NCBI GenBank assembly: GCA_937952265.1
Contig: CALFYW010000016.1
Coordinates: forward strand, 398,661-462,660
Direction of reading: 5' to 3'
DNA from: an uncultured bacterium
GTDB lineage: Bacteria > Patescibacteriota > Minisyncoccia > Phycocordibacterales > GCA-2401445
DNA: 64,000 nucleotides
Below are positions 30,823 to 62,934 of the stretch, one piece after another. Each line of letters begins with the position of its first letter. The first letter of the stretch is position 1. Both the position numbers and the translations under genes were made by a program. Below the pieces are notes generated by a model. The model searched no databases. It saw only the letters and a program-made list of their open reading frames with translations, and was not told the origin of the DNA.

Positions 30823-31128
30823 GTGATGAGGCATACTATGATCTATAGACCATAGGGAGCGCAATTGCTACTCTCACTATGTATGGTTTCTTAACGTTCA
30901 TGCGAAAGGGCGAAAGGAATGCAATGAAGAGGAGAAACACCAAAAAGAAGAAGGTGTCGCGCGGGGATGATAGCAGTGATGCAGGCGGTGACGAAATACA
31001 CCAGAAAGGTTGTGTCATTGTCTGCAAGTCTCCTCTGTCTGCTGGGGAAGTATTTTCCCCGGGAAGTAGCTCGCGTCATCGTGAAAGGTTTTATCTCCAC
31101 GAATGATTGATGGGCACACTCAGTAAAA

Positions 31129-31173
31129 GCCCTAACCGTGTTTCGATTTTGTATACACGGTTAGGGCTTTTTT
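31129..31173 (+). terminator. Strong hairpin plus T-run (12-bp stem gccctaaccgtg / cacggttagggc, 15-nt loop, TTTTTT), ending 3 nt before the ATG of the VirD4-like gene.
   Basis: Read directly from the sequence. It overlaps the 5' part of the track ORF 31107..32948, so the real start of that gene must lie downstream at 31176. Confidence 0.6.
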
Positions 31174-31175
31174 GC

Positions 31176-32948
31176 ATGTCTGATTTAACCTATACTGTAT
31201 ATATGGTTAAAGAAAATACGATCACCTTTTTTGCTCAAACTGATTCCCGAAATCGAAAGATTCCTTTTGGAATCAAATCTCATGATCGTACGAAGCACAT
31301 GTATGTTATCGGGAAAACCGGTATGGGAAAATCAACGCTTCTCGAAAATATGGTAGTGCAGGATATTCAGAATGGAGAAGGGGTTGCGTTTATTGATCCG
31401 CATGGAAAATCTGCAGAACTGCTTCTTGATTATGTACCACGAGAGCGAATCAATGATGTACTTTATTTCGCGCCGTTTGATATGGAGCATCCAGTTTCTT
31501 TCAATGTAATGGAGGATGTGGGTGCTGATAAACGTCATTTGGTCGCTAATGGTTTGATGAGTGCGTTCAAGAAAATCTGGGTTGACGCATGGTCGGCCCG
31601 AATGGAATATATTTTAAATAATATCCTCCTTGCATTGCTTGAGTATCCCGGTTCGACACTCATTGGGGTTAATCGGATGCTTGCAGATAAAGACTATCGA
31701 AAGAAGGTGGTTGAGAATATCACTGATCCCTCGGTCCGGTCATTCTGGATTGATGAATTTGCTCGATATGGCGATCGATATATGCAAGAAGCTGGGGCCG
31801 CAATTCAAAATAAAATTGGCCAATTTATTTCGAACCCGCTTGTCCGTAATATTATCGGCCAACCGAAATCAACCTTCGATATTCGCACACTCATGGATGA
31901 TCGGAAGATTTTAGTGATCAACCTTTCTAAGGGGCGCGTCGGTGAGGCAAACGCAAATCTTTTAGGGAGTATGATCATTACTAAGATCTATCTTGCGGCT
32001 ATGTCTCGAGCAGATGTGCACGATAAGGTGCTTCAAACACTGCCCAACTTTTATTTATATGTTGATGAATTCCAGTCTTTTGCGAACGAATCCTTTGCGG
32101 ATATTCTTTCTGAGGCCAGGAAGTACAAACTTAATTTAACGATTGCGCATCAATATATTGAACAGATGTCGGATGAGGTACGAGCTGCGGTGTTTGGTAA
32201 TGTTGGAACCATGATTACGTTTCGGGTTGGCGCCTATGACGCGGAAGTGCTCGAAAAAGAATTTTCTCCGCAATTTAGCGCTCAGGATTTAGTGAATTTA
32301 GGATTTGCGCAGATTTATTTGAAACTCATGATTGATGGTATCAGCTCGCACCCATTCTCTGCGACCACACTAACTCCTATTGCGCCACCCCCGGAAAGTT
32401 TTAAAGAAAAAATTATCACACATTCTCGAGAAACTTTTGCTCGGCCGAGAGCAGAGGTTGAAAAAGAGATACGCGATTGGCATCAACCCGAATCAGTAAC
32501 TACAGAACAAAGAAATCAAAAGCGAGAAGGAGGTAGTGGGGGAAATTATCACCGCGGTAAGACGGGAGTTTTGCCTCAAAAAGAAGAAGAGAAAAAAAGA
32601 GAAATCTCAAATTATCAGACCCCTCGTTCGGTAATGGTTCCGCTTGATTCATTAAAGAAGAAAAATCATCAAAAAGGTGGAGAAGGGCATTCGAAACCCT
32701 TAATGAACAAAAACCCTTCACCAAAAAATATGTCTGCATTGCGGGAGGCGCTTTCAAGGGCTATGGAAAAACATGAGGAAGATAAAAAAGAAAATCAGAA
32801 ATTAAATCCCGAGAAGAAAGAAGAAGCACCAGAATCAATTCTGAAGGAGAGGGAAAAAGAAATGCGTCCTTTTGTACCCCCTCGGCGCGAGATCCCGGAA
32901 GAAGCATTAAGAAAGGTTCTTGATGTTCCAAAGCCGGAAAAGCAATGA
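31176..32948 (+). CDS. P-loop ATPase of the VirD4/TraD/TrwB (type IV coupling protein) or DUF87 superfamily, with a ~170 aa K/E-rich disordered C-terminal tail.
   Basis: Walker A VIGKTGMGKST, Walker B FYLYVDEFQSF and LVINLSKGRVGE. The C-terminal third is low-complexity, K/E/R-rich. Confidence 0.5.
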   Translation: MSDLTYTVYMVKENTITFFAQTDSRNRKIPFGIKSHDRTKHMYVIGKTGMGKSTLLENMVVQDIQNGEGVAFIDPHGKSAELLLDYVPRERINDVLYFAPFDMEHPVSFNVMEDVGADKRHLVANGLMSAFKKIWVDAWSARMEYILNNILLALLEYPGSTLIGVNRMLADKDYRKKVVENITDPSVRSFWIDEFARYGDRYMQEAGAAIQNKIGQFISNPLVRNIIGQPKSTFDIRTLMDDRKILVINLSKGRVGEANANLLGSMIITKIYLAAMSRADVHDKVLQTLPNFYLYVDEFQSFANESFADILSEARKYKLNLTIAHQYIEQMSDEVRAAVFGNVGTMITFRVGAYDAEVLEKEFSPQFSAQDLVNLGFAQIYLKLMIDGISSHPFSATTLTPIAPPPESFKEKIITHSRETFARPRAEVEKEIRDWHQPESVTTEQRNQKREGGSGGNYHRGKTGVLPQKEEEKKREISNYQTPRSVMVPLDSLKKKNHQKGGEGHSKPLMNKNPSPKNMSALREALSRAMEKHEEDKKENQKLNPEKKEEAPESILKEREKEMRPFVPPRREIPEEALRKVLDVPKPEKQ

Positions 32949-34447
32949 AAAGTTTTTGTTTCTACCTCGGTATCATAGTAGGGTGTTCTATTTTCCCGTT
33001 TTCCGCGGAGGCGCTCGTGGTTACTGAAATCATGTATGATCTGCCAGCAGGAGATGCCGGGCATGAATGGATTGAAGTATACAACGATAGTGATACTGAG
33101 ATTGACCTTACCCTCTGGAGGTTTTTCGAAGGAGAGCAAGGTCACTTAATAAAAAATGCTTCTGGGAATCCACCACTTCCCCCTCAAGGGATTGCCATCA
33201 TTGCGGATAATGAAGCGCAATTCAGAGCAGATTGGCCGTCATTTTCTGGAAGTCTCTTTGATAGTAGTTTTTCTTTGCACAATACTGGTGAAGAGCTTTC
33301 ATTTAAAGATGAAAATGGATTAGTGCATGGAAAAATCACCTATGCTTCAGAGTGGGGCGGGTCTGGCGATGGGAACTCCCTCTCTCTTTTTCAGGGGGCG
33401 TGGCATGGCAGGAGTCCTTCGCCAGGCACTTTTGATAAAACATCCGATGATACGAGCGGGACTTCCCAAGATCAAGATGGGTCACATGAATCTAGTTCTT
33501 CAGAAACTATTGATCCAGTAGCGAAGCCAAAGAAAGAATCACAAGCATCATTTGTGGTGCCCAATATTTATGCTGAAGCACACATGAATCAACGAGCAGT
33601 TGTGGGTGCGCAGAGTGAGTTTACTGCGGATGTGTTTGGGCTTCAAGGAGAACCAATTGACAATGCTCGATTTTTATGGAATTTTGGAGATGGTTCAGTT
33701 CAGGAAGGGAAGCGTGTTTACCACGCCTATGAGTATCCCGGTTCTTATGTGGTGGTGCTTTCCGTGAGCGCGGGGAAATACCATGTTACTGATCGTGGAG
33801 AGATAGTAGCAGTGTCTTCTCCAATCAATGTAAGTAATGCGGTAAGTATGGGGAATGAAGGGTTTATTGAGGTTTCTAATACAGGGGATTTTGAGATTGA
33901 TATATCTCGTTGGATCCTATCTCACGAAGATCGACATTATGTGTTTCCCAAATATAGCATCATTCGGGCTCGTGCCGAGACGCGTTTTCCCTTAAAGACA
34001 ACCCTTATTGCCTTAAATCAGGCATCTCCTATTGTACTCTCGTATCCAAATGGCATTACTGCATCGACATATCATTTTCCTATCTTACGCACCGCAGATC
34101 ATGAAGGTACGGTGGTTCCGGATGTGGTACGAAGAGAAGTGGTATCAATAGAATCATCGAATATCCAAAGTGGGGCGAATATCGCACCTGCTTCCTTAAG
34201 CCAGAGCGCATCCGTAGCGTTTACAATTCCTGGTGAGAGCGAGTTATCAGAATTGAGCACCTCATCAGACGATGGCTCTCGTGCTGAAGCTTTGATTCAG
34301 ACTGAAATTGAAACCAATGAGACGTCAGGGAATTCTCTCGCGTGGATTCTCGCATTTACCTTTATCGTGGTGATTTCGGTACTCGGCATTATTTTTATTC
34401 GACGAGAAAAACAAGATGAAGATAATGACATTACCTTATTAGATTGA
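32945..34447 (+). CDS. Lamin-tail-domain (LTD) surface protein with a signal peptide and a C-terminal TM anchor.
   Basis: VVTEIMYDLPAGDAGHEWIEVYN...DLTLW is the LTD signature. A second beta-rich region and a C-terminal hydrophobic anchor (LAWILAFTFIVVISVLGIIFI) follow. The ATGA junction with the upstream ATPase gene indicates translational coupling. Confidence 0.6.
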   Translation: MKSFCFYLGIIVGCSIFPFSAEALVVTEIMYDLPAGDAGHEWIEVYNDSDTEIDLTLWRFFEGEQGHLIKNASGNPPLPPQGIAIIADNEAQFRADWPSFSGSLFDSSFSLHNTGEELSFKDENGLVHGKITYASEWGGSGDGNSLSLFQGAWHGRSPSPGTFDKTSDDTSGTSQDQDGSHESSSSETIDPVAKPKKESQASFVVPNIYAEAHMNQRAVVGAQSEFTADVFGLQGEPIDNARFLWNFGDGSVQEGKRVYHAYEYPGSYVVVLSVSAGKYHVTDRGEIVAVSSPINVSNAVSMGNEGFIEVSNTGDFEIDISRWILSHEDRHYVFPKYSIIRARAETRFPLKTTLIALNQASPIVLSYPNGITASTYHFPILRTADHEGTVVPDVVRREVVSIESSNIQSGANIAPASLSQSASVAFTIPGESELSELSTSSDDGSRAEALIQTEIETNETSGNSLAWILAFTFIVVISVLGIIFIRREKQDEDNDITLLD

Positions 34448-44119: not shown

Positions 44120-45466
44120 ATGAAGACCGTTGTAATTACCAGTTTTCACCCCCATATTTCAAGGAATATTTTAAGCACGGAAGCATTTCGTATTTTAGTC
44201 CAAAATCCAAAGCTTCGAATTGTGCTCGCGGTTCCTGATTATAAGGTGGATTTTTTTACTAAAGAATACGCTACCAACGAGCGCATTTCAGTATTTGGTA
44301 TTGAACCCTATCAGGCTTCTCGAACGCTACGCGGGCGATTTTTTAAGCGCCTAGGGGTATTTCTTTTTGATACCCAAACCGCTCGAAACAGAAAAAAATA
44401 TGAATACTATTTTCATGGTAAATATATTATTTATTATTTTTCTCGACTACTTGGTATAATTGGCCACTCTTTTATTTTTCGTCGATTGGTACGTTTTCTT
44501 GATCTGTGGTGCGCTCCAAAAACAAGTGCTTCACGCATGCTTTCTGAAATTAAACCGGACATGCTCTTTTCAACTGATCTTCAAAATGAAAATGATGTGA
44601 GCATCATGCACGCGGCACGCAAGGGAAAAATTCCTATTTTAGGAATGTTACGTTCATGGGATAATCCAACTCAGCGTATTCTACGAGTTTTACCAGAAAA
44701 AATGATTGTAGGGTCAAACGTGCTTGAAGAAGAAGTTCGCTTGCTGTATCGATACCCACCAGCACAAATCGTTATTACGGGAAATCCGCATTATGACCGA
44801 TATCTTAAGGGTCCCACGATGAGTAAGGATAAATTTCTAAAGTCTCTCAATCTTCCCCTCGATAAAAAACTTATTTTATATGCGCCAGTTAGTGATGCGC
44901 TCATCTACCATAATGATATTGATGAATATGTGCTCTCCCTACTTGGAGATGTTGACGCATCAGTATTAGTTCGTTTTCCTCCAGAAAAGCCGGTTCGTCT
45001 CTCGGGTGATTTTAAACAACCTCAGAACATGGTCTATGATCGTCCGGGCGTATCTTTTAATGCTCGTCGGGTTGGTGATCGTGAGATTCGTCGCGAGGAT
45101 GATAGTCGCCTTATTGATTCTTTGTATCATGCGGATGTGGTGGTAACTGGCCCGACGAGCATTACCATTGATGCTGCATTAATTGATCGTCCGGTAATCG
45201 CGGTTCATTTTTATCCTACGCCACGTGAGTTTTTCCGTTCTGTATACCGTTACGAGGATAATCAGATCGTTAAAGTTCGAGAAACGGGAGGTATTCATGT
45301 GAGCGTTACAAAAGAAGATTTTTTAAAAACTCTTGCTTCTTATTTAGAAAATCCAAGACGTGATGCAAAAGGAAGAGAGAAAATACGATCAATGTGGTTT
45401 TCGCATGCAGATGGAAGTGCTGGCAGGCGTGTGGCGGACGCGGTACTTGATTTTCTAACGGTATGA
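44120..45466 (+). CDS. TagB/TagF-family CDP-alditol/glycerol phosphotransferase-like protein (Glyphos_transf), paralog 1.
   Basis: SWDN motif, LILYAP, and ADVVVTGPTSITIDAALIDRPVIAV (cf. TagF LITDYSS...DKPIIFY). Confidence 0.45.
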   Translation: MKTVVITSFHPHISRNILSTEAFRILVQNPKLRIVLAVPDYKVDFFTKEYATNERISVFGIEPYQASRTLRGRFFKRLGVFLFDTQTARNRKKYEYYFHGKYIIYYFSRLLGIIGHSFIFRRLVRFLDLWCAPKTSASRMLSEIKPDMLFSTDLQNENDVSIMHAARKGKIPILGMLRSWDNPTQRILRVLPEKMIVGSNVLEEEVRLLYRYPPAQIVITGNPHYDRYLKGPTMSKDKFLKSLNLPLDKKLILYAPVSDALIYHNDIDEYVLSLLGDVDASVLVRFPPEKPVRLSGDFKQPQNMVYDRPGVSFNARRVGDREIRREDDSRLIDSLYHADVVVTGPTSITIDAALIDRPVIAVHFYPTPREFFRSVYRYEDNQIVKVRETGGIHVSVTKEDFLKTLASYLENPRRDAKGREKIRSMWFSHADGSAGRRVADAVLDFLTV

Positions 45467-46842
45467 AAACAATTCTAATTCCAATCACAACAAATTTCTT
45501 TTCTCGAACGTTTCTTCAAACTGACGCTCTATCCGAATTATTGAAAGATCCAGAAATTCGTATTGTCTGCTTATCCCCGAAGAATAGGAGATATTATTAC
45601 GAAAAAACATTCGGGCATGACCGATTACTTTTTGATGAACTTCCAGACACCAGTGCAAAGACCATTGAGTCAGTATTTAGATTTTTGGAAGTGTGGAGTA
45701 TTAAAAGTAAAACACAGAAACTGATTATCGATGCGGAATTTCACCGCAAGGGAAGTAAAGCCTCTTTCTTCTTACGCCTCATTACTTTTATGTTAAAAAA
45801 ATCCTTATGGTTTTTGGGAGCTTTCCGTTGGTGGCGACAGGGGATCCGTTTTTGCTACAGCGTATTTTCGAGCACTGATTACCATGCTTTGTTTGGAGTC
45901 TATCATCCGGAATTAGTATTTGCTCCTACGATGCTTCCTGCTGATGCGCACATACTTCGAGAGGCAAAAAAATTCGGTATTAAGACTGCTGGGGTAGTAC
46001 TAAGCTGGGATAATCTTTATAGTAAAACATTTTTTCGTGTACATCCTGATCGAGTCATGGTTGCGTCAAAGACATTGGAAGATCTTGCGGTAGAGAAAGC
46101 TGATTATCCGCGGAATAAGCTAGAGGTGATCGGTATTCCCCAGTACGATCGTTACGCGAATAAAAAACCCTCACTTTCTCGTGATGAGTTTATTCGCAAA
46201 CTCGGCGGCGATCCTTCAAAAAAATTAATACTTTACGCGCTGTCAGGAAAAAAAGGCATATCTATCGAACATGGTATTATTGAATTGCTGTATCGCATAG
46301 TAAAGGAGAACATGCTTAAAGAGCCTGTTGAGGTGCTCATACGCCCTTATCCTCGCTATGATTTTTCTGAAGAAAAATTATCGAAGTGGCGACATGAATA
46401 TGGGTTTCGAGCCGAATCATCACTCGCACATATTGACGGTAAAGCAGATGAATGGGAATTTGATGATGTATCACTTGATTTTTTGCAGAATAGTCTTGCT
46501 CATGCGGATGTGATTATTACCATGTATTCTACTTTTTTTATTGAGGGAGCGATTCACGATAAGCCGTTAGTCGCGATAGGGTTTGATGGTTTAGAAGATG
46601 AAAATTATTGGAATTCAAGTCGGCGTTTTTTTGAGTGGGATCATTTGAAGTCATTATTGCCGTGTGATGGGATTACCTTCGCCCGTAGCTTCCAAGGTTT
46701 AGCCGAATCAATTAATAGCTCGCTCATGGATCCGAAATTAAAACGGGAAGGAAGAAAATGTATCGTAAATCAGCAGGCAACGTTTAACGATGGAAAATCA
46801 GGCATTCGTCTGGGAAAGTCACTTTATACCTTGATGAAATAA
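45463..46842 (+). CDS. TagB/TagF-family phosphotransferase-like protein, paralog 2.
   Basis: VLSWDNLYS and ADVIITMYSTFFIEGAIHDKPLVAIGFDG. ATGA overlap with paralog 1. Confidence 0.45.
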   Translation: MKTILIPITTNFFSRTFLQTDALSELLKDPEIRIVCLSPKNRRYYYEKTFGHDRLLFDELPDTSAKTIESVFRFLEVWSIKSKTQKLIIDAEFHRKGSKASFFLRLITFMLKKSLWFLGAFRWWRQGIRFCYSVFSSTDYHALFGVYHPELVFAPTMLPADAHILREAKKFGIKTAGVVLSWDNLYSKTFFRVHPDRVMVASKTLEDLAVEKADYPRNKLEVIGIPQYDRYANKKPSLSRDEFIRKLGGDPSKKLILYALSGKKGISIEHGIIELLYRIVKENMLKEPVEVLIRPYPRYDFSEEKLSKWRHEYGFRAESSLAHIDGKADEWEFDDVSLDFLQNSLAHADVIITMYSTFFIEGAIHDKPLVAIGFDGLEDENYWNSSRRFFEWDHLKSLLPCDGITFARSFQGLAESINSSLMDPKLKREGRKCIVNQQATFNDGKSGIRLGKSLYTLMK

Positions 46843-46854
46843 TATTGTTTCGTT

Positions 46855-48252
46855 ATGCATAAAAAAACAATCGCCATTACGTTAGGATCTGCGGCCGCGT
46901 TTCGGAACCTCTTTTTCTTCCCAGGGAGCGTGTTCGAACAGCTTCGAGTATATGCGAAAAAAAATAATATTCGAATTCTTGTCTGCATTACGCCAAAAGA
47001 CTATGAAAAGTATCAGCCAATTATTAACCCTGATGGGGAATATGTGTGCTATGAGAAAATTTCAGTCGCTCCTGCGCGCAGATCTCTTGAGCGCGTATTC
47101 TACTTTTTCTATTCCTACTTAGTGTATACCGGAACGACGAAAGTGTTAGCTACCATGGCGATTCGTCCTGATGAGCCCCCAGCCGGAGGAAAGTCGTATT
47201 TAGTATTCTTGAAGTGGACAATTTCTCGTTTTTTTGGATGGAGTCGTTTTTTGAAACGAAATGTTATCCCTTTTTTATTTCACAAAATTTTTATTGAGAG
47301 ACCCTTCAGAGATACAATCGAATCATACCAACCTGATCTTATGGTGAGTACCCATATCTATGGATGGTTTGATACTCAGTTTCTTCGAGAAGCAAAAGCG
47401 CAAGGCATTAAGACCATCGGCATGCCTGCTGGGTGGGATCATCTCGATAAGTATTTTCTACCATTTCACCCTGATACCCTTTTAGTTCCAAGTAAAGAAC
47501 TCTCAAATGCCGCAGTAAAATACCAAGCATACGCGAAATTTGAAATACAAATTGTAGGGTACGCGCATTTTGATTTTATTCTAAACCCAGAAATTCAAAA
47601 AACACGAGACGAGGTGTTGCGTTTCTTGAATTTTCCACCCCATGCCAAGTATCTTCTCTATGTGTCTGGAAGCGCGTATTGCCCGGATGAACCCGATATT
47701 ATAGAGACATTGCTTCAATGGTTTGAGGAGAAGCAGGTTGGTGATGAGGACGTTTACCTGGTTATCCGCCCTTACTTAGGAGGGAGAGGGAAAGACCGTG
47801 AATTTGATGAGAAAAAGTTTAATCGTTTTAAGACGCACCCAAGAGTTTATTTTTTTGATAAACCACTTTGGAATGATGTTGAAAATAGTGCCTCATTTAT
47901 TAATATTATGCGATACGCGGATGTGGTGCTTGGTATGTATACCACAATTGTGCTTGAGGCAAGCGTATTTGATCGACCGCTTATTGCCGCCGGATTTGAC
48001 GGTTATACTACACGCCCCATGAAGCGCTCAATTCGTCGGTTTGAGTATCTTGAGCATTTTAAGGATGTTCTGAAGACAGGAGCACTTCCAACCGCTTATA
48101 ATTTTTCGGAGTTACAAGAGTTGCTCAAACTCACGTTAGCTGATCCTCATAGTCGGTCACATGAACGCGAGAAATTGCGACATTCACTCGCAGGGGTCCT
48201 TGACGGGGCATCTTCTCGTCGTATAGTAGATGCATTAATTAACGCGCTCTGA
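46855..48252 (+). CDS. TagB/TagF-family phosphotransferase-like protein, paralog 3.
   Basis: PAGWDHLDKYF and ADVVLGMYTTIVLEASVFDRPLIAAGFDG. Confidence 0.45.
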   Translation: MHKKTIAITLGSAAAFRNLFFFPGSVFEQLRVYAKKNNIRILVCITPKDYEKYQPIINPDGEYVCYEKISVAPARRSLERVFYFFYSYLVYTGTTKVLATMAIRPDEPPAGGKSYLVFLKWTISRFFGWSRFLKRNVIPFLFHKIFIERPFRDTIESYQPDLMVSTHIYGWFDTQFLREAKAQGIKTIGMPAGWDHLDKYFLPFHPDTLLVPSKELSNAAVKYQAYAKFEIQIVGYAHFDFILNPEIQKTRDEVLRFLNFPPHAKYLLYVSGSAYCPDEPDIIETLLQWFEEKQVGDEDVYLVIRPYLGGRGKDREFDEKKFNRFKTHPRVYFFDKPLWNDVENSASFINIMRYADVVLGMYTTIVLEASVFDRPLIAAGFDGYTTRPMKRSIRRFEYLEHFKDVLKTGALPTAYNFSELQELLKLTLADPHSRSHEREKLRHSLAGVLDGASSRRIVDALINAL

Positions 48253-49218: not shown

Positions 49219-51105
49219 ATGTGTGGCATTGCAGGATTTGTTGGAAGTGGAAATCAAGCTGATCTTAACTTGATGCTAAAGCGTATTGCGCATCGGGGTC
49301 CTGATAGTGAGGGAAAATTCACCCGGGGGAATGTGTTCTTTGGCCACCGGCGTTTATCGATCATTGATTTGAGTAGCGCGGGAAACCAACCTATGTGGAA
49401 TGAGGAGGGAAATATCGCGCTTATTTTTAATGGTGAGATCTATAATTTTCAGGAATTACGGAAAGAGCTTCTTGCTACTCGGCGGCATACGTTTCAGAGT
49501 AATACTGACACCGAGGTGATCATCCATCTTTATGAAGATCTTGGAGTTCAGTGTTTTAAGAAGCTCTCAGGGATGTTTGCATTAGCGATTTATGATTTTC
49601 GATCTAATCGTTTAATATTGGCTCGAGATCGAATTGGCAAGAAACCTCTTTATTGGTCGCGACAAGGAGATACGATCATTTTTGCGTCAGAACTTAAATC
49701 AATACTTGCGCACCAGTTAATCCCTAAAGCGATTGATCCAATGATGCTCAATCAGTATCTTCAATATGACTATGTGCCGACCCCATATACGATGGTTCAA
49801 GGAGTGAGGAAGCTTTTAGCCGGAAACTACCTTCTCTGGGATGGGAAGAAACACAGCCTCCATTCATTTTGGGAGCAATCATTTCTACCTAAGCACTCTG
49901 AAGAGTCAATCGAGGCAACACTTTCTCAGCTTAACAAGCACCTCACCAAGAGTGTTTCAGAGAGGCTGGTTGCTGATGTACCGGTGGGAGTCTTTCTAAG
50001 TGGTGGGTTGGATAGCGCGGTTATGGCATACTATGCGTCTATCTTACAACCTTCTTCAGTACGGACATTTTCTGTTGGATTTCGAGAGAAGACTTTTGAT
50101 GAATCAAGTTATGCACGCATGGTAGCAGAATATTTAAATACCGATCATACCGAGCGTTATGTGACTGTTCAGGATATGCTCGATGCAACACTTAGTATTA
50201 CCGATTTTCTCGATGACCCTATTGCTGATACCTCAATTATTCCAACGTATTTATTATCTAAGTTTGCCCGTGAGTCAGTCACGGTTGTACAGAGTGGTGA
50301 TGGCGGAGATGAGCTCTTCGCGGGGTACCCTACTTTTTTTGCGGAGTTTTTTGCACGTTTCTATGAGAAGGTCCCCCGCGCAATCCATCATCATGTAGTT
50401 CGTCGAATAACTCAGTTATTCCTCTCTCCGCACGATAAGTACTTTAGTCTCGAATTCAAAGTTAAAAAGTTCTTAGAAGGATTTGAAGATATGAGACATC
50501 GTCGACATGCTATCTGGCTCGGTAGCCACTCAAGGGATAGTAGATCAAACCTATTATCTGAATCGTTATGGAGTGAGGTTGGAGGAGAAAATGAATTTGC
50601 GTTAGTTGATGCTTTTTTTGAACGTTTTAGGAATGAGGATTCGCTCAGTCAACTTCTTGCTTTCTATCAGCGATTTTATTTGATGGATCAGGTTTTGGTA
50701 AAGGTGGATCGCGCAAGTATGGCGCACGGATTAGAAGTTCGATCTCCTTTTCTTTCCTATGAACTCGTTGATTATGTCAACCGCATGCCTTCAGATCTAA
50801 AGTATCGGATGTTTACCTCAAAGTGGATTTTGAAGAGGTTGATGCATGGGAAGCTTCCACCTCAAATTATCAATCGAAAGAAACAAGGGTTTGCAACACC
50901 GCTTTCTCTATGGTTTAAAAATGAACTCAAGGGATTTATCTCAGAGGTTCTACTTTCCTCAGGGGTGAAGCAGGACGGTTTCTTTAACACGGTATACATT
51001 GAACGCTTAATTCATGAGCATGTCTCCGGGAAAGAAAACCATACCAAAAGGATCTGGTCTTTATTGGTATTCGAACTTTGGAAGAACCGGTGGCTTAAGC
51101 GTTAA
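49219..51105 (+). CDS. asnB: Asparagine synthetase (glutamine-hydrolysing) AsnB-family amidotransferase.
   Basis: N-terminal MCGIAG nucleophile. PP-loop SGGLDS. Confidence 0.85.
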   Translation: MCGIAGFVGSGNQADLNLMLKRIAHRGPDSEGKFTRGNVFFGHRRLSIIDLSSAGNQPMWNEEGNIALIFNGEIYNFQELRKELLATRRHTFQSNTDTEVIIHLYEDLGVQCFKKLSGMFALAIYDFRSNRLILARDRIGKKPLYWSRQGDTIIFASELKSILAHQLIPKAIDPMMLNQYLQYDYVPTPYTMVQGVRKLLAGNYLLWDGKKHSLHSFWEQSFLPKHSEESIEATLSQLNKHLTKSVSERLVADVPVGVFLSGGLDSAVMAYYASILQPSSVRTFSVGFREKTFDESSYARMVAEYLNTDHTERYVTVQDMLDATLSITDFLDDPIADTSIIPTYLLSKFARESVTVVQSGDGGDELFAGYPTFFAEFFARFYEKVPRAIHHHVVRRITQLFLSPHDKYFSLEFKVKKFLEGFEDMRHRRHAIWLGSHSRDSRSNLLSESLWSEVGGENEFALVDAFFERFRNEDSLSQLLAFYQRFYLMDQVLVKVDRASMAHGLEVRSPFLSYELVDYVNRMPSDLKYRMFTSKWILKRLMHGKLPPQIINRKKQGFATPLSLWFKNELKGFISEVLLSSGVKQDGFFNTVYIERLIHEHVSGKENHTKRIWSLLVFELWKNRWLKR

Positions 51106-56425: not shown

Positions 56426-58417
56426 TTATTTTCTCTTGGTGTGAGAAAATATCTGGACCATTTCATTTTCATAAATTAGTTTTATTGAATCTGTTTCTTT
56501 AATATTTCCTCCAAGGAGTCGCTCTCGTGGGCCGAGATAGAGGTAGTCAAGATGGAAAGAATTTTCAATTGGTAGAGCAGTTTCAGTGTATTCCTGATAT
56601 TGCTCAAGAAGCTTCGTGTGGTCTTCGTCTGAAATATACGGGGGAAGGAATCCTTTATTTGTAAAAATACTTCCTGGTTGCTTTGCACGAAGCATGTCCC
56701 CATATAGGTAACTCAATCCTTCAAATTCATAGCTTGCTGGAGGATAAGTTTCTTCTGTGGCAAAGAAATGAGCAAAGACATCCGAGGTAATCATAAATAG
56801 GTGCGAGATCTCCATAAATCGTTTTGTAATTTCTTCATTTGGAGCGATAGAGGTAAGCCCGTTTGGCGCATAGAGATTGTTGAAAGTGAGGTTAGCAAGA
56901 TAGGTATTTGAAAGAAATGATGGTGTACCAACGACACTTCCTGGCTGGGTGTTTTCATTAAGCCACTTAAAACTCTCAGATTCATATTGTGGAATCATGG
57001 CACGGGCCTTGCTCTCCTCGATAAAATTTTCTTGCGCCATCATTCCTTTGATAAAAAGCAAACCAATAGCGATCCAAAGAAGGAAGATGAGGTATTCGCG
57101 GTGTGATATGTTAAACAGGTATCGAAACCCCCAGAGTATGTAAAGGAGGGTGATAAATCCTGCAATACCAAAAACTCCAAACATGACCACCGTGCTTTCG
57201 GTGGTAATCCCAATAATCGAAAGTGGAATAACCAGGGTGAGAGTGATCAAGGCGCTTTTTTTCTCCGATGGTACTTTACATTTGTGCTGGAGGAAGTAGT
57301 ACGCAAGTACGAAGAATGAAAGTGTTAATACTACTTGTTGTGGTTTTATCCAGTGATCTGGCTGAGGATTAAATCCAGTAATAATTTGGAAATTATAAAT
57401 AACAAATACTGGAAGGAGTAAGCTGGCAAACCACACACCATTATTGCTTTTTGTATTTCGATAAAGGAACAAAAAGAGAATTGCAAGTACCGCATGTTGA
57501 ACATAAAAGAATAAAACTCGAGGGTACCACAATGGTTTATGAGTATGCTCTGGTCCAAGCCTTAGTGCGAGATCTGAATATGAGGGAAGTGCTTGAACCG
57601 CAAAAAAAGAAATCCAGTATGGAATAGAAATCAAAAGTCCCAGCCCGATGATAATCGCGGTGTTTTTTACAACGCTCCATTTTTTTGAAAACGCGGCAAT
57701 CCCGAGCAAAAATACGAGTGCGATTCCAAGGTACGCCACATAATAAAAATAGGTATAAAAAAGAATCCCAAAGGAAATCCCCGCAAGGTAACAAGTGATT
57801 CTTTCATTGCGTTGTATAGTTCGATAGATGAGGTAGAGCGCAAGAATGAAAAAGGGGAGGGTCAGGAGCGGGTCCTCGAATCGATCAAGTGGAAGGTGTT
57901 TTGGTGCAAGGATTAGCTTTGTTAAGAACCATGATTGGTAGTATTCTGAAAAGAGTGGAAAAAAAGCGAGATAGCGGGGTAAGATAATAGAGAACATTGC
58001 AAAAAAAATCGCACCTGTCTTCTGTCTCGTAATTTCAAAAAAGAGCAGATAAAGAAAAAAGAAGGTTGCTATTGGAAAGAGGGCGTCACCTAGCATATTT
58101 GCGATCTGTATGTCCCCAACGAATCGAGCAAAATAACCCGCAATCAGATGGGGTATTGGTGGAAGAAAGTTTGGAGAATCTTGGTATTCCCAAACATTGA
58201 CATCACCCGCAGGCTCTCCATTAATAAATACTTCATTGACCCGTGCGGTGGTAAAGTGTCGTTCATCAAGGTTAACAAGCGTAGGATAGTATTCGATCCC
58301 TCTTTTCGAGAAGCTCTCAAAAAGGATGAAATGGGCAGTTCCATGGAGCAAGAAAATGGCAATGAGTAGGAGAAGCGCAATATGATGCCGGAATATAAAT
58401 GAAGCTAATCTTGACAT
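56426..58417 (-). CDS. Large polytopic membrane protein, GT-C-like (candidate oligosaccharyl/glycosyl transferase). The only minus-strand gene inside the glycan locus.
   Basis: 663 aa. The N-terminal ~450 aa have ~13 TM segments and are followed by a soluble C-terminal domain. Confidence 0.4.
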   Translation of the reverse strand: MSRLASFIFRHHIALLLLIAIFLLHGTAHFILFESFSKRGIEYYPTLVNLDERHFTTARVNEVFINGEPAGDVNVWEYQDSPNFLPPIPHLIAGYFARFVGDIQIANMLGDALFPIATFFFLYLLFFEITRQKTGAIFFAMFSIILPRYLAFFPLFSEYYQSWFLTKLILAPKHLPLDRFEDPLLTLPFFILALYLIYRTIQRNERITCYLAGISFGILFYTYFYYVAYLGIALVFLLGIAAFSKKWSVVKNTAIIIGLGLLISIPYWISFFAVQALPSYSDLALRLGPEHTHKPLWYPRVLFFYVQHAVLAILFLFLYRNTKSNNGVWFASLLLPVFVIYNFQIITGFNPQPDHWIKPQQVVLTLSFFVLAYYFLQHKCKVPSEKKSALITLTLVIPLSIIGITTESTVVMFGVFGIAGFITLLYILWGFRYLFNISHREYLIFLLWIAIGLLFIKGMMAQENFIEESKARAMIPQYESESFKWLNENTQPGSVVGTPSFLSNTYLANLTFNNLYAPNGLTSIAPNEEITKRFMEISHLFMITSDVFAHFFATEETYPPASYEFEGLSYLYGDMLRAKQPGSIFTNKGFLPPYISDEDHTKLLEQYQEYTETALPIENSFHLDYLYLGPRERLLGGNIKETDSIKLIYENEMVQIFSHTKRK

Positions 58418-58475: not shown

Positions 58476-59855
58476 ATGAATTTCTCCAAACGGCAAGAGC
58501 CGTTCTCTTTTTCGCGTGCGTTTGTGCAAGGGGAACTCCACCTCGGTATTTGGAGTTTCTTTAAAAAATTTGTCGGTGTTGGAAATTCTTTCTTCGTCTT
58601 AAGCTCCCTTACTCTATATCAATACGGAGTCTATCAGCTCCTACTCTCTTTTTATGCAATTGTGTCTGATTTCTTCCACGATTTGTTTGCGAGCGTAACT
58701 TCAAATGATATTGCTCGTTTTATTGGAGAGAGAAAAGAAGCACATGCAAAACGACTCTTTCTTGAATATGCCCGATTTCGTCTTTTTATGGCTGCAATTC
58801 CTTTGGTAGGGACTTTTTTTATTGCATCTTCCGTTTCGCACCTTTATGGACCTGAAGCTATTCTTTGGGTTCAAATACTCGGTATTTTATTTATGGTAGA
58901 TGCCATACTCGCGCTTGCAATGATTCTTTTAAAACTCCGACTTGAATTTCGCATTGTCGCAACACGTCCAGCTTTTCAGAAATTTATCCAACTCGCTGTC
59001 TTAGCGTATTTCTTTTTCTTTTCTTCTATTGGGATCAAAGAGGTCTTGCTGGCACAGCTTCTTGCGCCGCTCATCACCTTGGTTTTTCTTATCCCCGCCA
59101 TTATTCGCGTTTATCACCCATGGAGAAGTTTGCGTGGATTATCAGAAGGTATTTTTGTTTCGGTGGTGCGATCTTACGGAAAGTGGGAGATCCCGCAATC
59201 ACTACTTCGCGACCTGGTAGCCAAAGTCCGACCTTGGATTATTAAGTTTTTTCTCACTACGGAAGCAGTCGGAATTTTTGGCGTTGCGAATACCGCAGTT
59301 TCTTTATTGAAGGATTTAATACCGATGCGTACCCTCTCTACTCTTGTGCCACGGAAAGTTTCTGATCGGGGGTACCTCAATTTTCTTTTTGCGTATGGAA
59401 CAAAATATTATCTTCTTCTCGGAGCAGGTCTGGTCGTGATTGGGGGGGTTGGTTTTCCTATCGCTATTAAATTCCTTTTCCCGCATTTTTCATCCGCAAT
59501 TCCGCTCTTCTATATACTGCTTCCAACGGTACTCTTCTTCGCGTTTATAAAAATCATCAGTATCTTTTTGGTTGTTGAAAGACGCCAACGGTTTATCTTC
59601 TACTTCTCTCTTTTTCAAAGTGTCATCACGCTCGCATTTCTCGTAGGTGCAGTAAGTAAATTTGGGCTCATGGGTATTGCGCTAGCTGAAGTCTTCGCGC
59701 TTGGTATTGCAATTTTGGTTAAATACCGTTATCTCTTGCGGCAGAAATTTATTAAGCCCTTTTCTTTTGGCACGCTGTTTACTTTCACCCAAGAGGATCG
59801 ACGTATTTTATCAATACTGCATTTGAATATTTTTGCCTTTTTAAAGAAAAAATAA
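58476..59855 (+). CDS. Polysaccharide/oligosaccharide flippase-like membrane protein (MOP/Wzx-like).
   Basis: 459 aa with ~12 TM segments, located within the glycan cluster. Confidence 0.45.
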   Translation: MNFSKRQEPFSFSRAFVQGELHLGIWSFFKKFVGVGNSFFVLSSLTLYQYGVYQLLLSFYAIVSDFFHDLFASVTSNDIARFIGERKEAHAKRLFLEYARFRLFMAAIPLVGTFFIASSVSHLYGPEAILWVQILGILFMVDAILALAMILLKLRLEFRIVATRPAFQKFIQLAVLAYFFFFSSIGIKEVLLAQLLAPLITLVFLIPAIIRVYHPWRSLRGLSEGIFVSVVRSYGKWEIPQSLLRDLVAKVRPWIIKFFLTTEAVGIFGVANTAVSLLKDLIPMRTLSTLVPRKVSDRGYLNFLFAYGTKYYLLLGAGLVVIGGVGFPIAIKFLFPHFSSAIPLFYILLPTVLFFAFIKIISIFLVVERRQRFIFYFSLFQSVITLAFLVGAVSKFGLMGIALAEVFALGIAILVKYRYLLRQKFIKPFSFGTLFTFTQEDRRILSILHLNIFAFLKKK

Positions 59856-59860
59856 TACTA

Positions 59861-60646
59861 TTGGAGCTTATGAATAATCGCGAACTTCAGGAATTCTATA
59901 ATCGTGTCTATAAGAAAGGAGAGCGCAAACATTACAGTAAATTCTTGCTGACAAAAGAAGGCCTTACCCAAGAGAAGAGAGCTATTTTAAATACAACGTC
60001 ATGGAATAGGAAACGAGTACTTGATATTGGATGTGGTACCGGTGAACTTGCTTACCATATTGCTCAAAAAGCAAAATATGTGTGCGGAATTGACTACGCG
60101 CCAAGTGCGATAAAAATTGCTCAGAAACATTACCAGAGAGATAATTTAACCTACTTGCAAAGTGATGTTGAATCTCTCGATGAGGCTTTTGATGTTATCG
60201 TGATGGCTGGAGTGCTAGAGCATATTGACGAACCTTTTCTATTGCTCAAGAAATTGTCACATTTACTTGCTCCCAAGGGTTCCATAATCGTGACTTGTCC
60301 AAACTGGTCGAATATGAGGGGGTATATTTTGCTCGCCCTCGCAATGCTTTTTGACGCTCGTATTACACTAGCAGATATTCATTATTTTACACCGGTTGAG
60401 TTTGAAGCTTGGGCAAGGAAGCTTCGAATGAAGCTCTCATGGAATAGTATTGAACAGGAGTGGGGCCACGGAGAGAAAATGATTGCTGATTTTAAGAAAC
60501 GTCTTCCTAAGGTGCTTCAAGATACGCAGGTAAAGATTTCTCCTCAGAAGATTTCTCGATTTATCGCGTGGCTTTCAAAACATTACGCGTTAGAAACCAA
60601 TCAAAAAGCTTCAGGCGCAGTTGGTATTTATCATCTTAAAAGGTAA
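59861..60646 (+). CDS. Class I SAM-dependent methyltransferase.
   Basis: VLDIGCGTGELAYHIA...VIVMAGVLEHI. Confidence 0.7.
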   Translation: MELMNNRELQEFYNRVYKKGERKHYSKFLLTKEGLTQEKRAILNTTSWNRKRVLDIGCGTGELAYHIAQKAKYVCGIDYAPSAIKIAQKHYQRDNLTYLQSDVESLDEAFDVIVMAGVLEHIDEPFLLLKKLSHLLAPKGSIIVTCPNWSNMRGYILLALAMLFDARITLADIHYFTPVEFEAWARKLRMKLSWNSIEQEWGHGEKMIADFKKRLPKVLQDTQVKISPQKISRFIAWLSKHYALETNQKASGAVGIYHLKR

Positions 60647-60656
60647 TAGGGAGCAC

Positions 60657-62252
60657 ATGCGAAACTTGACAGATAAAACTATTTACGATATTTTGACTCC
60701 ATTGCAGAGATCTATGGAAAGAGGAGAAACAAGCGTTTTTGATTTTAGAGATTTATTCGTCTTTGAAATGGCCAATAACCATCAAGGGAGTCTTGAGCAT
60801 GGAAAAAAGATTATTCGTGAAATGGGGGTTATTGCGAAGAAAAAAAATATACGCGGAGCTATTAAATTTCAATTTCGAGATCTAGACACATTCATCCATC
60901 CTGAATTTCGTCGAGATAAAGAAGCTAAACATATTTCCCGTTTTCTCTCCACCCGTTTGACTGAAAGTGACTTTGAGACCTTAGTGAAATATGCCCGACG
61001 ACAAGGACTTATGACGATGGCGACCCCTTTTGATGAAGTCTCAGTCGATATGATTGATCGTTTAGGAATCCAGATTATTAAAGTCGCAAGTTGCTCAGCT
61101 CATGATTGGCCACTACTCGAGAGGATCGCTCAAACAGATCGTCCGATTATTGTCTCCGTGGGTGGACTTACGCTCAAGGAAGTCGATCGTGTGGTCAGCT
61201 TCTTCGAACATCGAGGCGCACACTTCGCCCTCATGCACTGCGTGGCGGTGTATCCAACTCCTGATAAAGATTTAAATCTCAATCAAATTACGCTTATGCT
61301 AGAGCGATACCCGCATATTACTATTGGATTTTCAACGCATGAATCCCCTGATAACACGACAGCTATCGCTCTTGCGTATGCGCGCGGAGCGCGTATCTTT
61401 GAAAAACACGTTGGAGTAGCAACTGATACCATTAAACTTAATGCGTACTCTGCAGATCCGACTCAGGTAAGTCATTGGATTGATGCATATCGTAAGGCGA
61501 GGGTGTCATGTGGAGATGATGTAGAAAGGACGATTGGAACACAAGAGAAAAAAGATCTCCAAACGCTTTTACGTGGAGTGTATGTGAAGCGAAAGCTAAA
61601 AGCCGGATCAATTATTTCCAGAAACGATGTATTTTTTGCAATGCCATATCAAAGTGGCCAAATGAAGAGCGGTCGATTTAAAGAAGGTTTTACTGCTGAT
61701 CGGGATTATAAGAAAAATGAACCTCTCAATGCATACATTGAACCTCAGCGTCCTTATAAAAGAGACATTGTCTATGGAGCAATCCGTGAAGCGAAAGCGA
61801 TGCTCGCCAAAGCGCGTATTCCGCTCAATCATGAATTTTCAGTTGAAATCTCGCACCATTTTGGGCTTGATAAATTTCAGGAGACAGGTTGCATGATCAT
61901 CGAATGTATTAATCGGGAATATGCAAAGAAGCTCATTATTCAATTTCCCGGACAGAAGAATCCAGTACATTATCATAAGGAAAAAGATGAGACCTTCCAA
62001 GTTCTCTTTGGTTCACTTGAAGTAGTGGTGGAAGGGAAAAAGCGTACGCTCTTTCCTGGAGACACGCTATGGGTTCCACGTGGAGTGTGGCACGGCTTCC
62101 ATACTAATACCGGCGTCGTGTTCGAGGAGATCTCTACGGTCGCAAAGGGTAATGATTCTTATTATGTAGACAAGCAAATTGCAAGTATTCCACGAGAAAC
62201 ACGAAAAACCTACCTTCAAAACTGGGGAAGACATCAGTTTGATGAAGAGTGA
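60657..62252 (+). CDS. NeuB-family nonulosonic-acid synthase (NeuB plus SAF domains) fused to a C-terminal cupin domain.
   Basis: NeuB TIM-barrel motifs (MANNHQGSLEHGKK, MATPFDEVSVDMI, IKVASCSAHDWPLL), then a SAF domain. The tail fits both cupin motifs: G-x5-HxH-x3-E (PVHYHKEKDE) and G-x5-PxG-x2-H-x3-N (GDTLWVPRGVWHGFHTN). Start moved to the Met at 60657 to avoid overlap with the upstream gene. Confidence 0.75.
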   Translation: MRNLTDKTIYDILTPLQRSMERGETSVFDFRDLFVFEMANNHQGSLEHGKKIIREMGVIAKKKNIRGAIKFQFRDLDTFIHPEFRRDKEAKHISRFLSTRLTESDFETLVKYARRQGLMTMATPFDEVSVDMIDRLGIQIIKVASCSAHDWPLLERIAQTDRPIIVSVGGLTLKEVDRVVSFFEHRGAHFALMHCVAVYPTPDKDLNLNQITLMLERYPHITIGFSTHESPDNTTAIALAYARGARIFEKHVGVATDTIKLNAYSADPTQVSHWIDAYRKARVSCGDDVERTIGTQEKKDLQTLLRGVYVKRKLKAGSIISRNDVFFAMPYQSGQMKSGRFKEGFTADRDYKKNEPLNAYIEPQRPYKRDIVYGAIREAKAMLAKARIPLNHEFSVEISHHFGLDKFQETGCMIIECINREYAKKLIIQFPGQKNPVHYHKEKDETFQVLFGSLEVVVEGKKRTLFPGDTLWVPRGVWHGFHTNTGVVFEEISTVAKGNDSYYVDKQIASIPRETRKTYLQNWGRHQFDEE

Positions 62253-62271: not shown

Positions 62272-62934
62272 ATGAAAGATATAAGATCAGAAAATATCAA
62301 GACGTTGGTTTTTGATTTTGATGGAACTCTTACTAAAGGCGGAGAATCTCTAAAGAAAGAATCATGGGTTGAGCTTGGAAAAGATGACCTCTCTTTTCAA
62401 AAAGCCCTACTTCACGCCCATAATTTTTTTGCTGGAAGTAAGAGTCGATTTGAGATTATACGATACGCGTTGGGAGAATCTTCCCATTATTCAAAAAAGA
62501 ATATTGAGGCATTGGTGGAGGGTTATGCATTTCAGTACGATCAGATTGTACAGCGTAGACTTCTAGCGAGTGGACTCATTGAAGGAACGATAAAAGGACT
62601 TGAGGTGCTTAGAAATCGATTTTCACTCTATATTAACACAAGCACCCCCGAAATCGCGGTGAAAGAGAGTTTAAAAAACTTAAATATCAGGCACCATTTT
62701 TCTGGTGTTTTCGGAAAACCTAGCTCGAAGTCTCAAAACTTAAAAAAAATAATAAAGAAAGAGAATGTGTTAGTCGAGAATGTGCTTTTTATTGGTGATA
62801 GCGAACATGATAGAGAAGTGGCGACAGATCTCGGGGTTACTTTTATTGGTGTTGCGAATAAGGAAAACCGGTGGAAGCATACTGATTTTCCCCTTATTCA
62901 TTCAGTCTTTGATTTGATCGTTTTGACCCAGTAG
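62272..62934 (+). CDS. HAD-superfamily phosphatase (candidate nonulosonate-9-phosphate or KDO-8-P-type phosphatase).
   Basis: LVFDFDGTLT motif I and a C-terminal GDSEHD motif. Confidence 0.65.
   Translation: MKDIRSENIKTLVFDFDGTLTKGGESLKKESWVELGKDDLSFQKALLHAHNFFAGSKSRFEIIRYALGESSHYSKKNIEALVEGYAFQYDQIVQRRLLASGLIEGTIKGLEVLRNRFSLYINTSTPEIAVKESLKNLNIRHHFSGVFGKPSSKSQNLKKIIKKENVLVENVLFIGDSEHDREVATDLGVTFIGVANKENRWKHTDFPLIHSVFDLIVLTQ

Follow-up and report, generated by a model that had tools for sequence, protein, structure and literature searches.

In a 64,000-nucleotide stretch of DNA from an uncultured bacterium of the Patescibacteriota (contig CALFYW010000016.1; the whole stretch is referred to below as the window), one gene on the forward strand joins a NeuB-type synthase to a cupin. 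The question that this locus raises is what the cupin does for the synthase, and which acidic sugar is made by the two together. The original prediction, made from the sequence alone, described a cupin extension of about 150 amino acids (aa) beyond NeuB and SAF, suggested an epimerase or isomerase (RmlC-like or mannose-6-phosphate isomerase-like) that passes an epimerised hexosamine directly to the synthase, and regarded the fusion as probably undescribed. We find that the cupin is by sequence and structural model a divergent member of the D-lyxose/D-mannose family of aldose-ketose isomerases, and that the whole protein is probably an isomerase-synthase in a pathway to an ulosonic acid activated with cytidine monophosphate (CMP).

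The fusion gene and its domains

The gene encodes 531 aa without an internal stop (60657-62252, Table 1), and many stop codons fall on the reverse strand across the same positions. The stop codon of the upstream methyltransferase gene (60644-60646) precedes both the Shine-Dalgarno-like AGGGAG and the ATG at 60657. The fusion is real, as seen from the single uninterrupted reading frame and from the identical architecture in the listed full-length homologues and in related loci.

A Pfam search returned NeuB (PF03102; aa 68-288, E 2.5e-45, 155.3 bits against a gathering score of 22.1) and Cupin_2 (PF07883; aa 431-486, E 1.1e-12, 47.9 bits against a threshold of 27.2), as well as a partial match to Lyx_isomer (PF07385) above its own threshold (27.3 bits against 20.8). 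The Pfam match to SAF was weak (E 0.09); PF08666 (SAF) is recorded in close relatives, and an AlphaFold2 model superposes, SAF region included, on solved structures (3g8r, NeuB, PseI) over 332-350 columns. The model was built on 111 homologues (pLDDT 92.1, pTM 0.83), and an alignment of 111 homologues, at about 60% identity, served for all conservation counts given below. The extension proposed originally is thus present, but it is longer than was estimated, about 170 aa (362-531).

Table 1. Features of the fusion gene and of the adjoining genes in the window.
Feature	Positions	Strand	Evidence
NeuB-SAF-cupin fusion gene, 531 aa + stop	60657..62252	+	Translation of the open reading frame, Pfam, AlphaFold2 model, independent gene calls
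Shine-Dalgarno-like AGGGAG	60648..60653	+	3 nt 5' of ATG 60657; read from the sequence
NeuB-type TIM barrel (predicted phosphoenolpyruvate-dependent ulosonic acid synthase), aa ~28-290	60738..61526	+	PF03102; PDB 3g8r, E 1e-86; Foldseek 3g8r, NeuB, PseI
SAF / antifreeze-like domain, aa ~295-360	61539..61736	+	Weak Pfam SAF; PF08666 in relatives; structural alignment
D-lyxose/D-mannose-isomerase-type cupin, aa 362-531: N-terminal helix, beta-barrel, C-terminal tail	61740..62249	+	Pfam Cupin_2 and Lyx_isomer; Foldseek; PDB profile
Cupin motif 1, GQKNPVHYHKEKDETFQVLFG, aa 432-452: metal ligands H438, H440, E445, with K443; spacing H-x-H-x2-K-x-E	61950..62012	+	Invariant in 111 homologues
Cupin motif 2, GDTLWVPRGVWHGFHTN, aa 468-484: fourth metal ligand H479	62058..62108	+	Motif match and conservation
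Segment E490-E491...D500-S501-x-Y503, aa 490-503; E491 aligns with E156 of Thermofilum lyxose isomerase	62124..62165	+	Conservation and PDB profile alignment
Conserved basic tail PRxxRKTxLxNWGRHQ, aa 512-527; R513, R516, K517 invariant	62190..62237	+	Alignment of 111 homologues
S-adenosylmethionine-dependent methyltransferase, directly upstream; possible tailoring enzyme	59861..60646	+	Family (cluster MT2) in 13 related loci; weaker association
HAD-IA (C1-capped) phosphatase, 220 aa, directly downstream	62272..62934	+	Profile searches
CMP-nonulosonate synthetase (CTP_transf_3; NeuA/PseF-like), 240 aa	62962..63684	+	6ifd, E 4e-29; KdsB, E 2e-8

The cupin is predicted to be an aldose-ketose isomerase

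The cupin is assigned to the lyxose/mannose type because its closest sequences, folds and catalytic residues are all of that family. In a Foldseek search of the PDB the best match after the NeuB-type structures was 2y0o (E 3.6e-12, TM 0.71, root-mean-square deviation 1.8, 166 of 171 residues), followed by 7nzo/p/q and 3kmh, ahead of all other cupins, and then by L-ribose isomerases. These entries are the lyxose isomerases YdaE of Bacillus subtilis (2Y0O), TsLI of Thermofilum (7NZO-Q) and Z5688 of Escherichia coli (3KMH), which match the cupin over their full length and share the spacing of metal site, Lys and Glu. Sequence and profile searches against the PDB agree with the fold search, and the alignment to 2Y0O spans the N-terminal helix, the barrel and the C-terminal segment. 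Chromobacterium orthologues of the fusion likewise carry the NCBI name 'D-lyxose/D-mannose family sugar isomerase'.

TsLI binds mannose and fructose through K62, H75, H77, K86, E88, H143, E156 and D163, and mutation of the equivalents of K86, E156 or D163 abolishes the activity of lyxose isomerases, for which a cis-enediol mechanism starting with His-assisted ring opening has been proposed (PMC8378251). Seven of these eight residues are aligned in the fusion protein (K425, H438, H440, K443, E445, H479 and E491), and all seven are invariant in the homologues. The H438/H440/K443/E445 motif aligns with HRH...GKQE of the B. subtilis enzyme and corresponds to H75, H77, K86 and E88 of TsLI. Judged from residue offset rather than from coordinates, R513 of the basic tail would lie roughly at the position of R175 of TsLI, at the mouth of the pocket. 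The lyxose isomerases differ from the cupin in being stand-alone, catabolic enzymes of free sugars, whereas here a C-terminal domain with 22-24% identity to them is found; the cupin also lacks a 6-residue insert between H-x-H and Lys and has the extra invariant basic tail RxxRKT.

Both cupin motifs had been thought to match the consensus exactly. Motif 1 does so in the canonical form with four residues (x4) before the Glu, not x3, and motif 2 is canonical up to its His, with the Asn at x4 and so displaced by one residue; G-x5-PxG-x2-H is kept in 111/111 homologues, but the strict motif with Asn in only one. The proposed His-His-Glu-His metal site is intact, with H438, H440, E445 and H479 invariant. 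As for the type of cupin, models, fold and active-site residues point to aldose-ketose isomerases and away from the RmlC-like or epimerase type first suggested: no such family appeared among the Pfam, NCBIfam, PDB sequence or fold matches, and the PDB matches were mostly aldose-ketose isomerases and dioxygenases. KdgF-type cupins occur among the weaker matches, and weak AraC_binding matches were found in some members of the fusion family. Given the real fusion and the invariant metal site, preparation of the sugar substrate for the fused condensing enzyme, as had been proposed, remains the most economical reading of the cupin's role.

The synthase domain defines a distinct NeuB subfamily

The synthase domain shares the TIM barrel and SAF fold and the His/Glu metal motifs with NeuB (1XUZ, 2WQP), PseI (8H2C) and SpsE (1VLI), and the condensation of an aldose with phosphoenolpyruvate (PEP) is presumed for it as well. 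Its GFSTHE (H228, E229) and FEKH (E249, H251) motifs align with the SDH and EKH motifs of 6ncs, and E229, E249 and H251 are invariant in the homologues, H228 nearly so. We take these motifs to be the counterparts of His215 and His236 of Neisseria meningitidis NeuB, with the residue roles of 1XUZ. In Foldseek the similarity to KDO8PS and DAH7PS did not go beyond a distant resemblance of the barrel.

The identity to characterized NeuB and PseI enzymes is only 20-25%, and the protein falls below the equivalog cut-offs for N-acetylneuraminate synthase (TIGR03569; 151.3 against 399.65) and pseudaminic acid synthase (TIGR03586; 135.9 against 340.25). By these scores it lies outside the strictly defined N-acetylneuraminate and pseudaminate synthases. 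It differs from NeuB, PseI and SpsE also in an extended conserved loop after KFQ (R74, H81, P82, H92, R95) and in the fused isomerase. As judged from its sequence relatives, the domain belongs to a distinct, large NeuB subfamily that is nearly always fused to a cupin as far as our searches show.

A conserved module of oxidoreductase, phosphatase and cytidylyltransferase

The fusion gene is followed by genes for a HAD phosphatase and a cytidylyltransferase (Table 1), and genes for a Gfo/Idh/MocA-like oxidoreductase and a TagF-like protein come next on the contig, beyond the window end. The cytidylyltransferase matches NeuA and PseF enzymes with E 4e-29 and 2e-36, and KdsB with only 2e-8. For the HAD protein generic HAD-IA phosphatases ranked best in a PDB profile search, with N-acylneuraminate-9-phosphatase in a middle position (E ~1e-6); KdsC models gave 20-22 bits against cut-offs of 107-208.

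In a survey of the neighborhood, the open reading frames of 81 related loci were clustered, and counts were taken from the 37 loci in which the fusion gene is flanked by at least 5 kb of sequence on either side. Within 5 kb, a Gfo/Idh/MocA gene is present in 31/37 loci, CTP_transf_3 in 29/37, a HAD gene in 25/37, and a HAD or His-phosphatase gene in 28/37. The oxidoreductases keep the EKP motif of the Gfo/Idh/MocA family and are distantly related to inositol and other sugar dehydrogenases. The order oxidoreductase, NeuB-cupin, HAD, CTP_transf_3 recurs in Nitrospirales, Planctomycetota, Proteobacteria and Actinomycetota. The conserved core of the related loci lacks genes for an aminotransferase, an acetyltransferase or NeuC, and the fusion gene shows no linkage to NeuC, PseB/C or LegB/C-type genes.

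The suggested hexosamine substrate finds no support: the core consists of oxidoreductase, phosphatase and CMP-transferase, and the same organism has a canonical, NeuC-linked NeuB as a separate gene. The latter is located on the same contig 9 kb downstream, in a locus (L001:13037-21506) with a NeuC-like Epimerase_2 protein, PAPS_reduct, two short-chain epimerase/dehydratases, its own CTP_transf_3 cytidylyltransferase and a 343-aa NeuB+SAF protein. Because of this second locus, the organism probably makes two different nonulosonic acids.

Distribution and annotation of the fusion

The window protein, the sequence of PDB 3G8R and an actinobacterial member each served as the query of a database search. 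Each search gave more than 6000 matches, of which the best 120 were listed, and the NeuB + Cupin_2 architecture is common to the best 120 of each, the only exceptions being two short fragments from contigs of 1-1.5 kb. In a scan of the Genome Taxonomy Database (GTDB) with one genome per species, 458 species genomes encode a relative of the fusion, and the best 80 of these relatives are all full-length fusions. The best 80 belong to Patescibacteria, Nitrospirales, Planctomycetota, Verrucomicrobiota, Chloroflexota, Gemmatimonadota, Elusimicrobia, Actinomycetota and Proteobacteria, with a Nitrospira strain and the cultured Niveispirillum irakense among them. We also considered a sister subfamily that lacks the cupin and has its isomerase in another gene, and rejected it, as the parent protein of 3G8R is itself a fusion and the only short matches are the contig fragments.

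Whether the architecture is undescribed, as was first thought, depends on where one looks. It is not new to the databases, which hold thousands of entries, including a truncated member in 3G8R. JGI names are dual, "sialic acid synthase SpsE/D-lyxose ketol-isomerase" or "/mannose-6-phosphate isomerase-like (cupin)", and NCBI uses either "N-acetylneuraminate synthase family protein" or "D-lyxose/D-mannose family sugar isomerase". In the searchable literature, on the other hand, no paper describing a fusion of NeuB with a cupin or lyxose isomerase was found, nor one on 3G8R. A large phylogeny of nonulosonic acid synthases covered lengths of 250-1500 aa with the proteins trimmed to domains, and cupin and isomerase are unmentioned in it. 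SCO4873-4882 of Streptomyces coelicolor is a chemically defined cluster for a teichulosonic acid with Kdn, 2-keto-3-deoxynononic acid (PMC13011467). As to a possible link of the fusion family with this cluster, the search seeded with the actinobacterial member had no Streptomyces protein among the matches listed.

A sister clade and other fusion variants

PDB 3G8R, from Chromobacterium violaceum, is of the same NeuB subfamily (E 1e-86), and its parent protein has the same architecture, with 42% identity over the full parent length. The parent (P0121; AAQ61551.1 cluster) is a NeuB-SAF-cupin protein of 495 aa, whereas the crystallized chain is a 350-aa construct without the cupin. The entry, which comes from structural genomics, is labeled 'putative spore coat polysaccharide biosynthesis protein E', and those who take it as a template or reference do not see the full set of domains.

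The gene context of this clade is that of a CDP-3,6-dideoxyhexose (CDP, cytidine diphosphate) and thiamine diphosphate (ThDP) cluster, not of the oxidoreductase-HAD-CMP-transferase module. In the clusters of C. violaceum (L084:6846-18234) and Azoarcus sp. KH32C (L085:6751-19966) the fusion gene is placed between the genes for RfbF (glucose-1-phosphate cytidylyltransferase), RfbG (CDP-glucose 4,6-dehydratase) and RfbH, all above equivalog cut-offs, and those for an acetolactate-synthase-like (YerE-like) ThDP enzyme, a C-methyltransferase, a NUDIX protein and radical SAM proteins; the Azoarcus cluster adjoins flagellin. This content suggests a higher or branched sugar, possibly for flagellin glycosylation.

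Further fusions extend the range of the family. CTP_transf_3 is N-terminally fused to NeuB-cupin in two rarer proteins (P0049, 930 aa; P0116, 770 aa), and the variants in these and in P0073 (674 aa) comprise CTP_transf_3-(CTP_transf_like)-NeuB-cupin and CTP_transf_like-NeuB-cupin. A HAD-like DVDDV motif region follows the cupin in a 468-aa fragment (P0303), a HAD domain there being unconfirmed by Pfam. The cupin also occurs detached, with NeuB not nearby (P0276, 169 aa, L086), and fused to the N-domain of a ThDP enzyme (P0305, 414 aa); neither of these two gives a clear clue to the substrate.

Proposed pathway and its alternatives

What is observed, namely the identity of the domains, the intactness of the catalytic residues, the linkage of the genes and the fusion variants, can be joined in the following scheme. 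The cupin would convert a ketose, most simply fructose 6-phosphate or fructose, to a manno-configured aldose in a metal-dependent reaction, and the NeuB barrel, capped by SAF, would condense this aldose with PEP to a non-aminated 3-deoxy-2-nonulosonic acid, that is, Kdn or Kdn-9-phosphate, or a close stereochemical or redox variant. The adjacent HAD protein would remove the phosphate, and the adjacent CTP_transf_3 protein would provide the CMP-activated donor for the surrounding surface-glycan cluster. The oxidoreductase past the window end would add one redox step; it may supply the ketose or tailor the product. The scheme is the simplest since lyxose/mannose isomerases make the manno/lyxo configuration used by NeuB-type enzymes. 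Mannose 6-phosphate as the substrate and Kdn-9-phosphate as the product are suggested by this specificity of the isomerase family together with the lack of amino-sugar genes, and the substrate, the product, the order of the steps and any channeling between the fused domains are to be read as predictions throughout. The linkage expected of a Kdn-type gene set is present, with phosphatase and CMP-nonulosonate synthetase adjacent in the window and with fusions known. A nine-carbon product is favored because the cytidylyltransferase is far closer in sequence to NeuA/PseF than to KdsB.

Several observations weigh against this scheme. On the way from fructose 6-phosphate to CMP-Kdn an oxidoreductase is not required, and yet no neighbor is as well conserved as the Gfo/Idh/MocA gene. 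Characterized lyxose isomerases use unphosphorylated sugars, while the HAD protein suggests phosphorylated intermediates, and the latter is a generic C1-capped HAD-IA protein rather than the KdsC-type phosphatase of the Bacteroides Kdn route. Within the cupin, D163 of TsLI has no exactly aligned Asp, the invariant D500 being two positions further on, and the score for the NCBIfam lyxose/mannose isomerase equivalog (NF051472) is 18.2 against a cut-off of 350. The Chromobacterium/Azoarcus clade, 42% identical over the full length, sits in a CDP-3,6-dideoxyhexose cluster, has a Gln instead of the first metal His, and has no HAD, Gfo/Idh/MocA or CMP-transferase gene within 10 kb of its fusion genes. 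The NeuB-cupin family is biochemically uncharacterized, and its chemistry is broader than a single Kdn-type scheme, since the sister clade belongs to a different cluster and the cupin is also found alone or fused to a ThDP enzyme. For this reason we propose Kdn in particular with modest confidence.

Graded by its parts, an isomerase-synthase in a CMP-ulosonic acid pathway is likely, whereas Kdn as the specific product is doubtful, if still a serious candidate. The full explanation, a bifunctional isomerase-synthase leading to a Kdn-type CMP-activated acid, is held with a confidence that is a compromise between the two, and is somewhat favored.

The strongest alternative is that the cupin acts on a free aldose, released by the HAD protein here or by the NUDIX protein in the Chromobacterium type, either as a C-2 epimerase working through the enediol (gluco to manno) or as a ring-opening catalyst handing the acyclic aldehyde to NeuB, with no net ketose-aldose isomerization. 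A hydrolase is indeed part of both gene contexts, and the core lacks a NeuC-type hydrolyzing 2-epimerase. His-assisted ring opening is the first step of the lyxose isomerase mechanism, KdgF-type cupins are among the weaker matches, and bacterial NeuB, PseI and LegI use unphosphorylated sugars (PMC6200933). However, the full catalytic set of Lys and two Glu is invariant, which goes beyond the needs of ring opening, and known members of the family interconvert only manno/lyxo aldoses and ketoses. We regard this alternative as unlikely, though it deserves to be kept in mind.

An eight-carbon acid is less probable still. Here the cupin would make lyxose 5-phosphate from xylulose 5-phosphate, for NeuB to condense with PEP to a stereoisomer of Kdo (3-deoxy-D-manno-octulosonic acid). 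D-lyxose/D-xylulose is the preferred substrate pair of the isomerase family (PMC8378251), xylulose 5-phosphate is a central metabolite, and a set of isomerase, synthase, HAD phosphatase and cytidylyltransferase corresponds exactly to the Kdo scheme. Against it, the cytidylyltransferase resembles CMP-NeuAc and CMP-Pse synthetases far more than KdsB. To our knowledge, moreover, the characterized NeuB-family enzymes all make nine-carbon acids.

Slightly further down, and improbable in our view, comes a non-catalytic cupin, that is, a sugar-binding domain with an allosteric or oligomerizing role like the regulatory domains of DAH7P synthase or AraC-type cupins. The weak AraC_binding matches in some members, the loss of the first metal His in the Chromobacterium clade and the crystallization of the synthase part alone (3G8R) speak for it, but the metal ligands, the catalytic Lys and the Glu do not vary in an alignment of 111 sequences with about 60% identity, and the fold matches active isomerases over the full length, N- and C-terminal elements included. 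That the fusion is an artefact, with a frameshift or with two adjacent genes joined by sequencing or assembly error, is ruled out for practical purposes by the identical 531-aa product called in three independent assemblies (ENA, Logan), by the homologues, by the best 80 genomic loci and by the same architecture in finished genomes of cultured Chromobacterium and Azoarcus.

Comparison with known pathways

A route from mannose 6-phosphate and PEP via Kdn-9-phosphate and Kdn to CMP-Kdn is known in Bacteroides thetaiotaomicron and Prymnesium parvum (PMC6200933). The logic of its gene set, with BT1714 as the synthase and BT1713 as the phosphatase, is matched by the proposed isomerase-synthase and its neighbors, but the synthases of the known route have no fused isomerase and the route has no oxidoreductase. 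The phosphatases presumably differ too, BT1713 being a KdsC/YrbI-type capless (C0) HAD protein and the one here a C1-capped HAD-IA protein.

The Kdo route (KdsD, KdsA, KdsC, KdsB) follows the same logic of ketose-phosphate isomerization, PEP condensation, dephosphorylation by a HAD phosphatase and CMP activation. KdsD is, however, a SIS/CBS protein and KdsA a KDO8P synthase, neither of which shares a family with the cupin or with NeuB, and each Kdo enzyme is a protein of its own, whereas the fusion would join the isomerase and synthase steps. The type II phosphomannose isomerase/GDP-mannose pyrophosphorylases of the AlgA/ManC type (TIGR01479) set a precedent, in that a cupin sugar isomerase forms the C-terminal part of a fusion with another enzyme of the same sugar-activation pathway. 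In these the partner is a nucleotidyltransferase, and the fusion protein scores only 14.6 bits against 373 for that model, with weak cupin matches.

Other genes of the surrounding cluster

The glycan cluster around the fusion gene covers roughly 30 kb, from 34.4 kb to the window end. A TagF-like gene is found within 5 kb of NeuB-cupin in 22/37 related loci. In the window, three tandem TagF-like CDP-glycerol glycerophosphotransferase paralogues (PF04464) are found at 44120-48252, with a fourth just past the end. Some TagF-bearing loci also have genes for a TagD-like cytidylyltransferase, an APH-type kinase and a histidine phosphatase, which hints at a teichoic-acid-like polymer.

Two proteins upstream of the methyltransferase gene, of 663 aa (56426-58417, reverse strand) and 459 aa (58476-59855, forward strand), have no Pfam or NCBIfam match and look rich in hydrophobic stretches by eye. 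The 459-aa protein recurs near the fusion gene in 13 related loci; polymerization, flipping or transfer of the product may be its role. In loci from outside the Patescibacteria (L071, L078, L081 and L083 of Nitrospirales, and L049, L067, L077 and L082) a protein of ~467 aa without a Pfam match always lies directly 5' of the Gfo/Idh/MocA gene. The Nitrospirales loci have, ahead of this protein, an 811-aa PF06258 (Mito_fiss_Elm1) protein, a class I/II aminotransferase and a short-chain dehydrogenase/reductase.

An AsnB-like glutamine amidotransferase is encoded inside the glycan cluster (49219-51105). AsnB-like enzymes amidate sugar carboxylates in other systems, and a modification of the ulosonic acid carboxyl group by this protein is a speculative thought. 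Directly 5' of the cluster, at 31107-34447, are a VirD4/TrwB-like coupling ATPase and then a secreted-type protein with Lamin-tail and PKD domains.

Significance

Which acidic surface sugar is made by this architecture, already catalogued in databases, can be tested directly, since members have been cultured (Chromobacterium, Azoarcus, Niveispirillum, Nitrospira) and half of a structure has been solved. Should the product turn out to be ordinary Kdn, the result would be a useful correction of annotation and no surprise.

Nonulosonic acids do much to determine the surface charge of bacteria, their recognition by phages and hosts and the properties of the biofilm matrix. Tentatively, and as a conjecture somewhat short of even ground, the fusion, with its oxidoreductase, HAD phosphatase and CMP-transferase, may form a self-contained and hitherto undescribed route from a central ketose or ketose phosphate to a CMP-activated deaminated nonulosonic acid (Kdn, a new epimer or, via the redox step, an oxidized relative) that does without nucleotide-sugar precursors and occurs widely among Patescibacteria, Nitrospirota, Planctomycetota and further environmental phyla, with the CDP-3,6-dideoxyhexose sister clade making another higher sugar. 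If a Kdn or Kdn-like acid is made from central metabolites in this way, it would be a third independent solution to the sequence of isomerization, PEP condensation, dephosphorylation and CMP activation, beside the Kdo route and the sialic acid routes of animals and Bacteroides. The fusion gene would then be a missing genetic marker for such sugars in uncultured groups, among them the ultra-small Patescibacteria, whose surfaces mediate the attachment to host cells.

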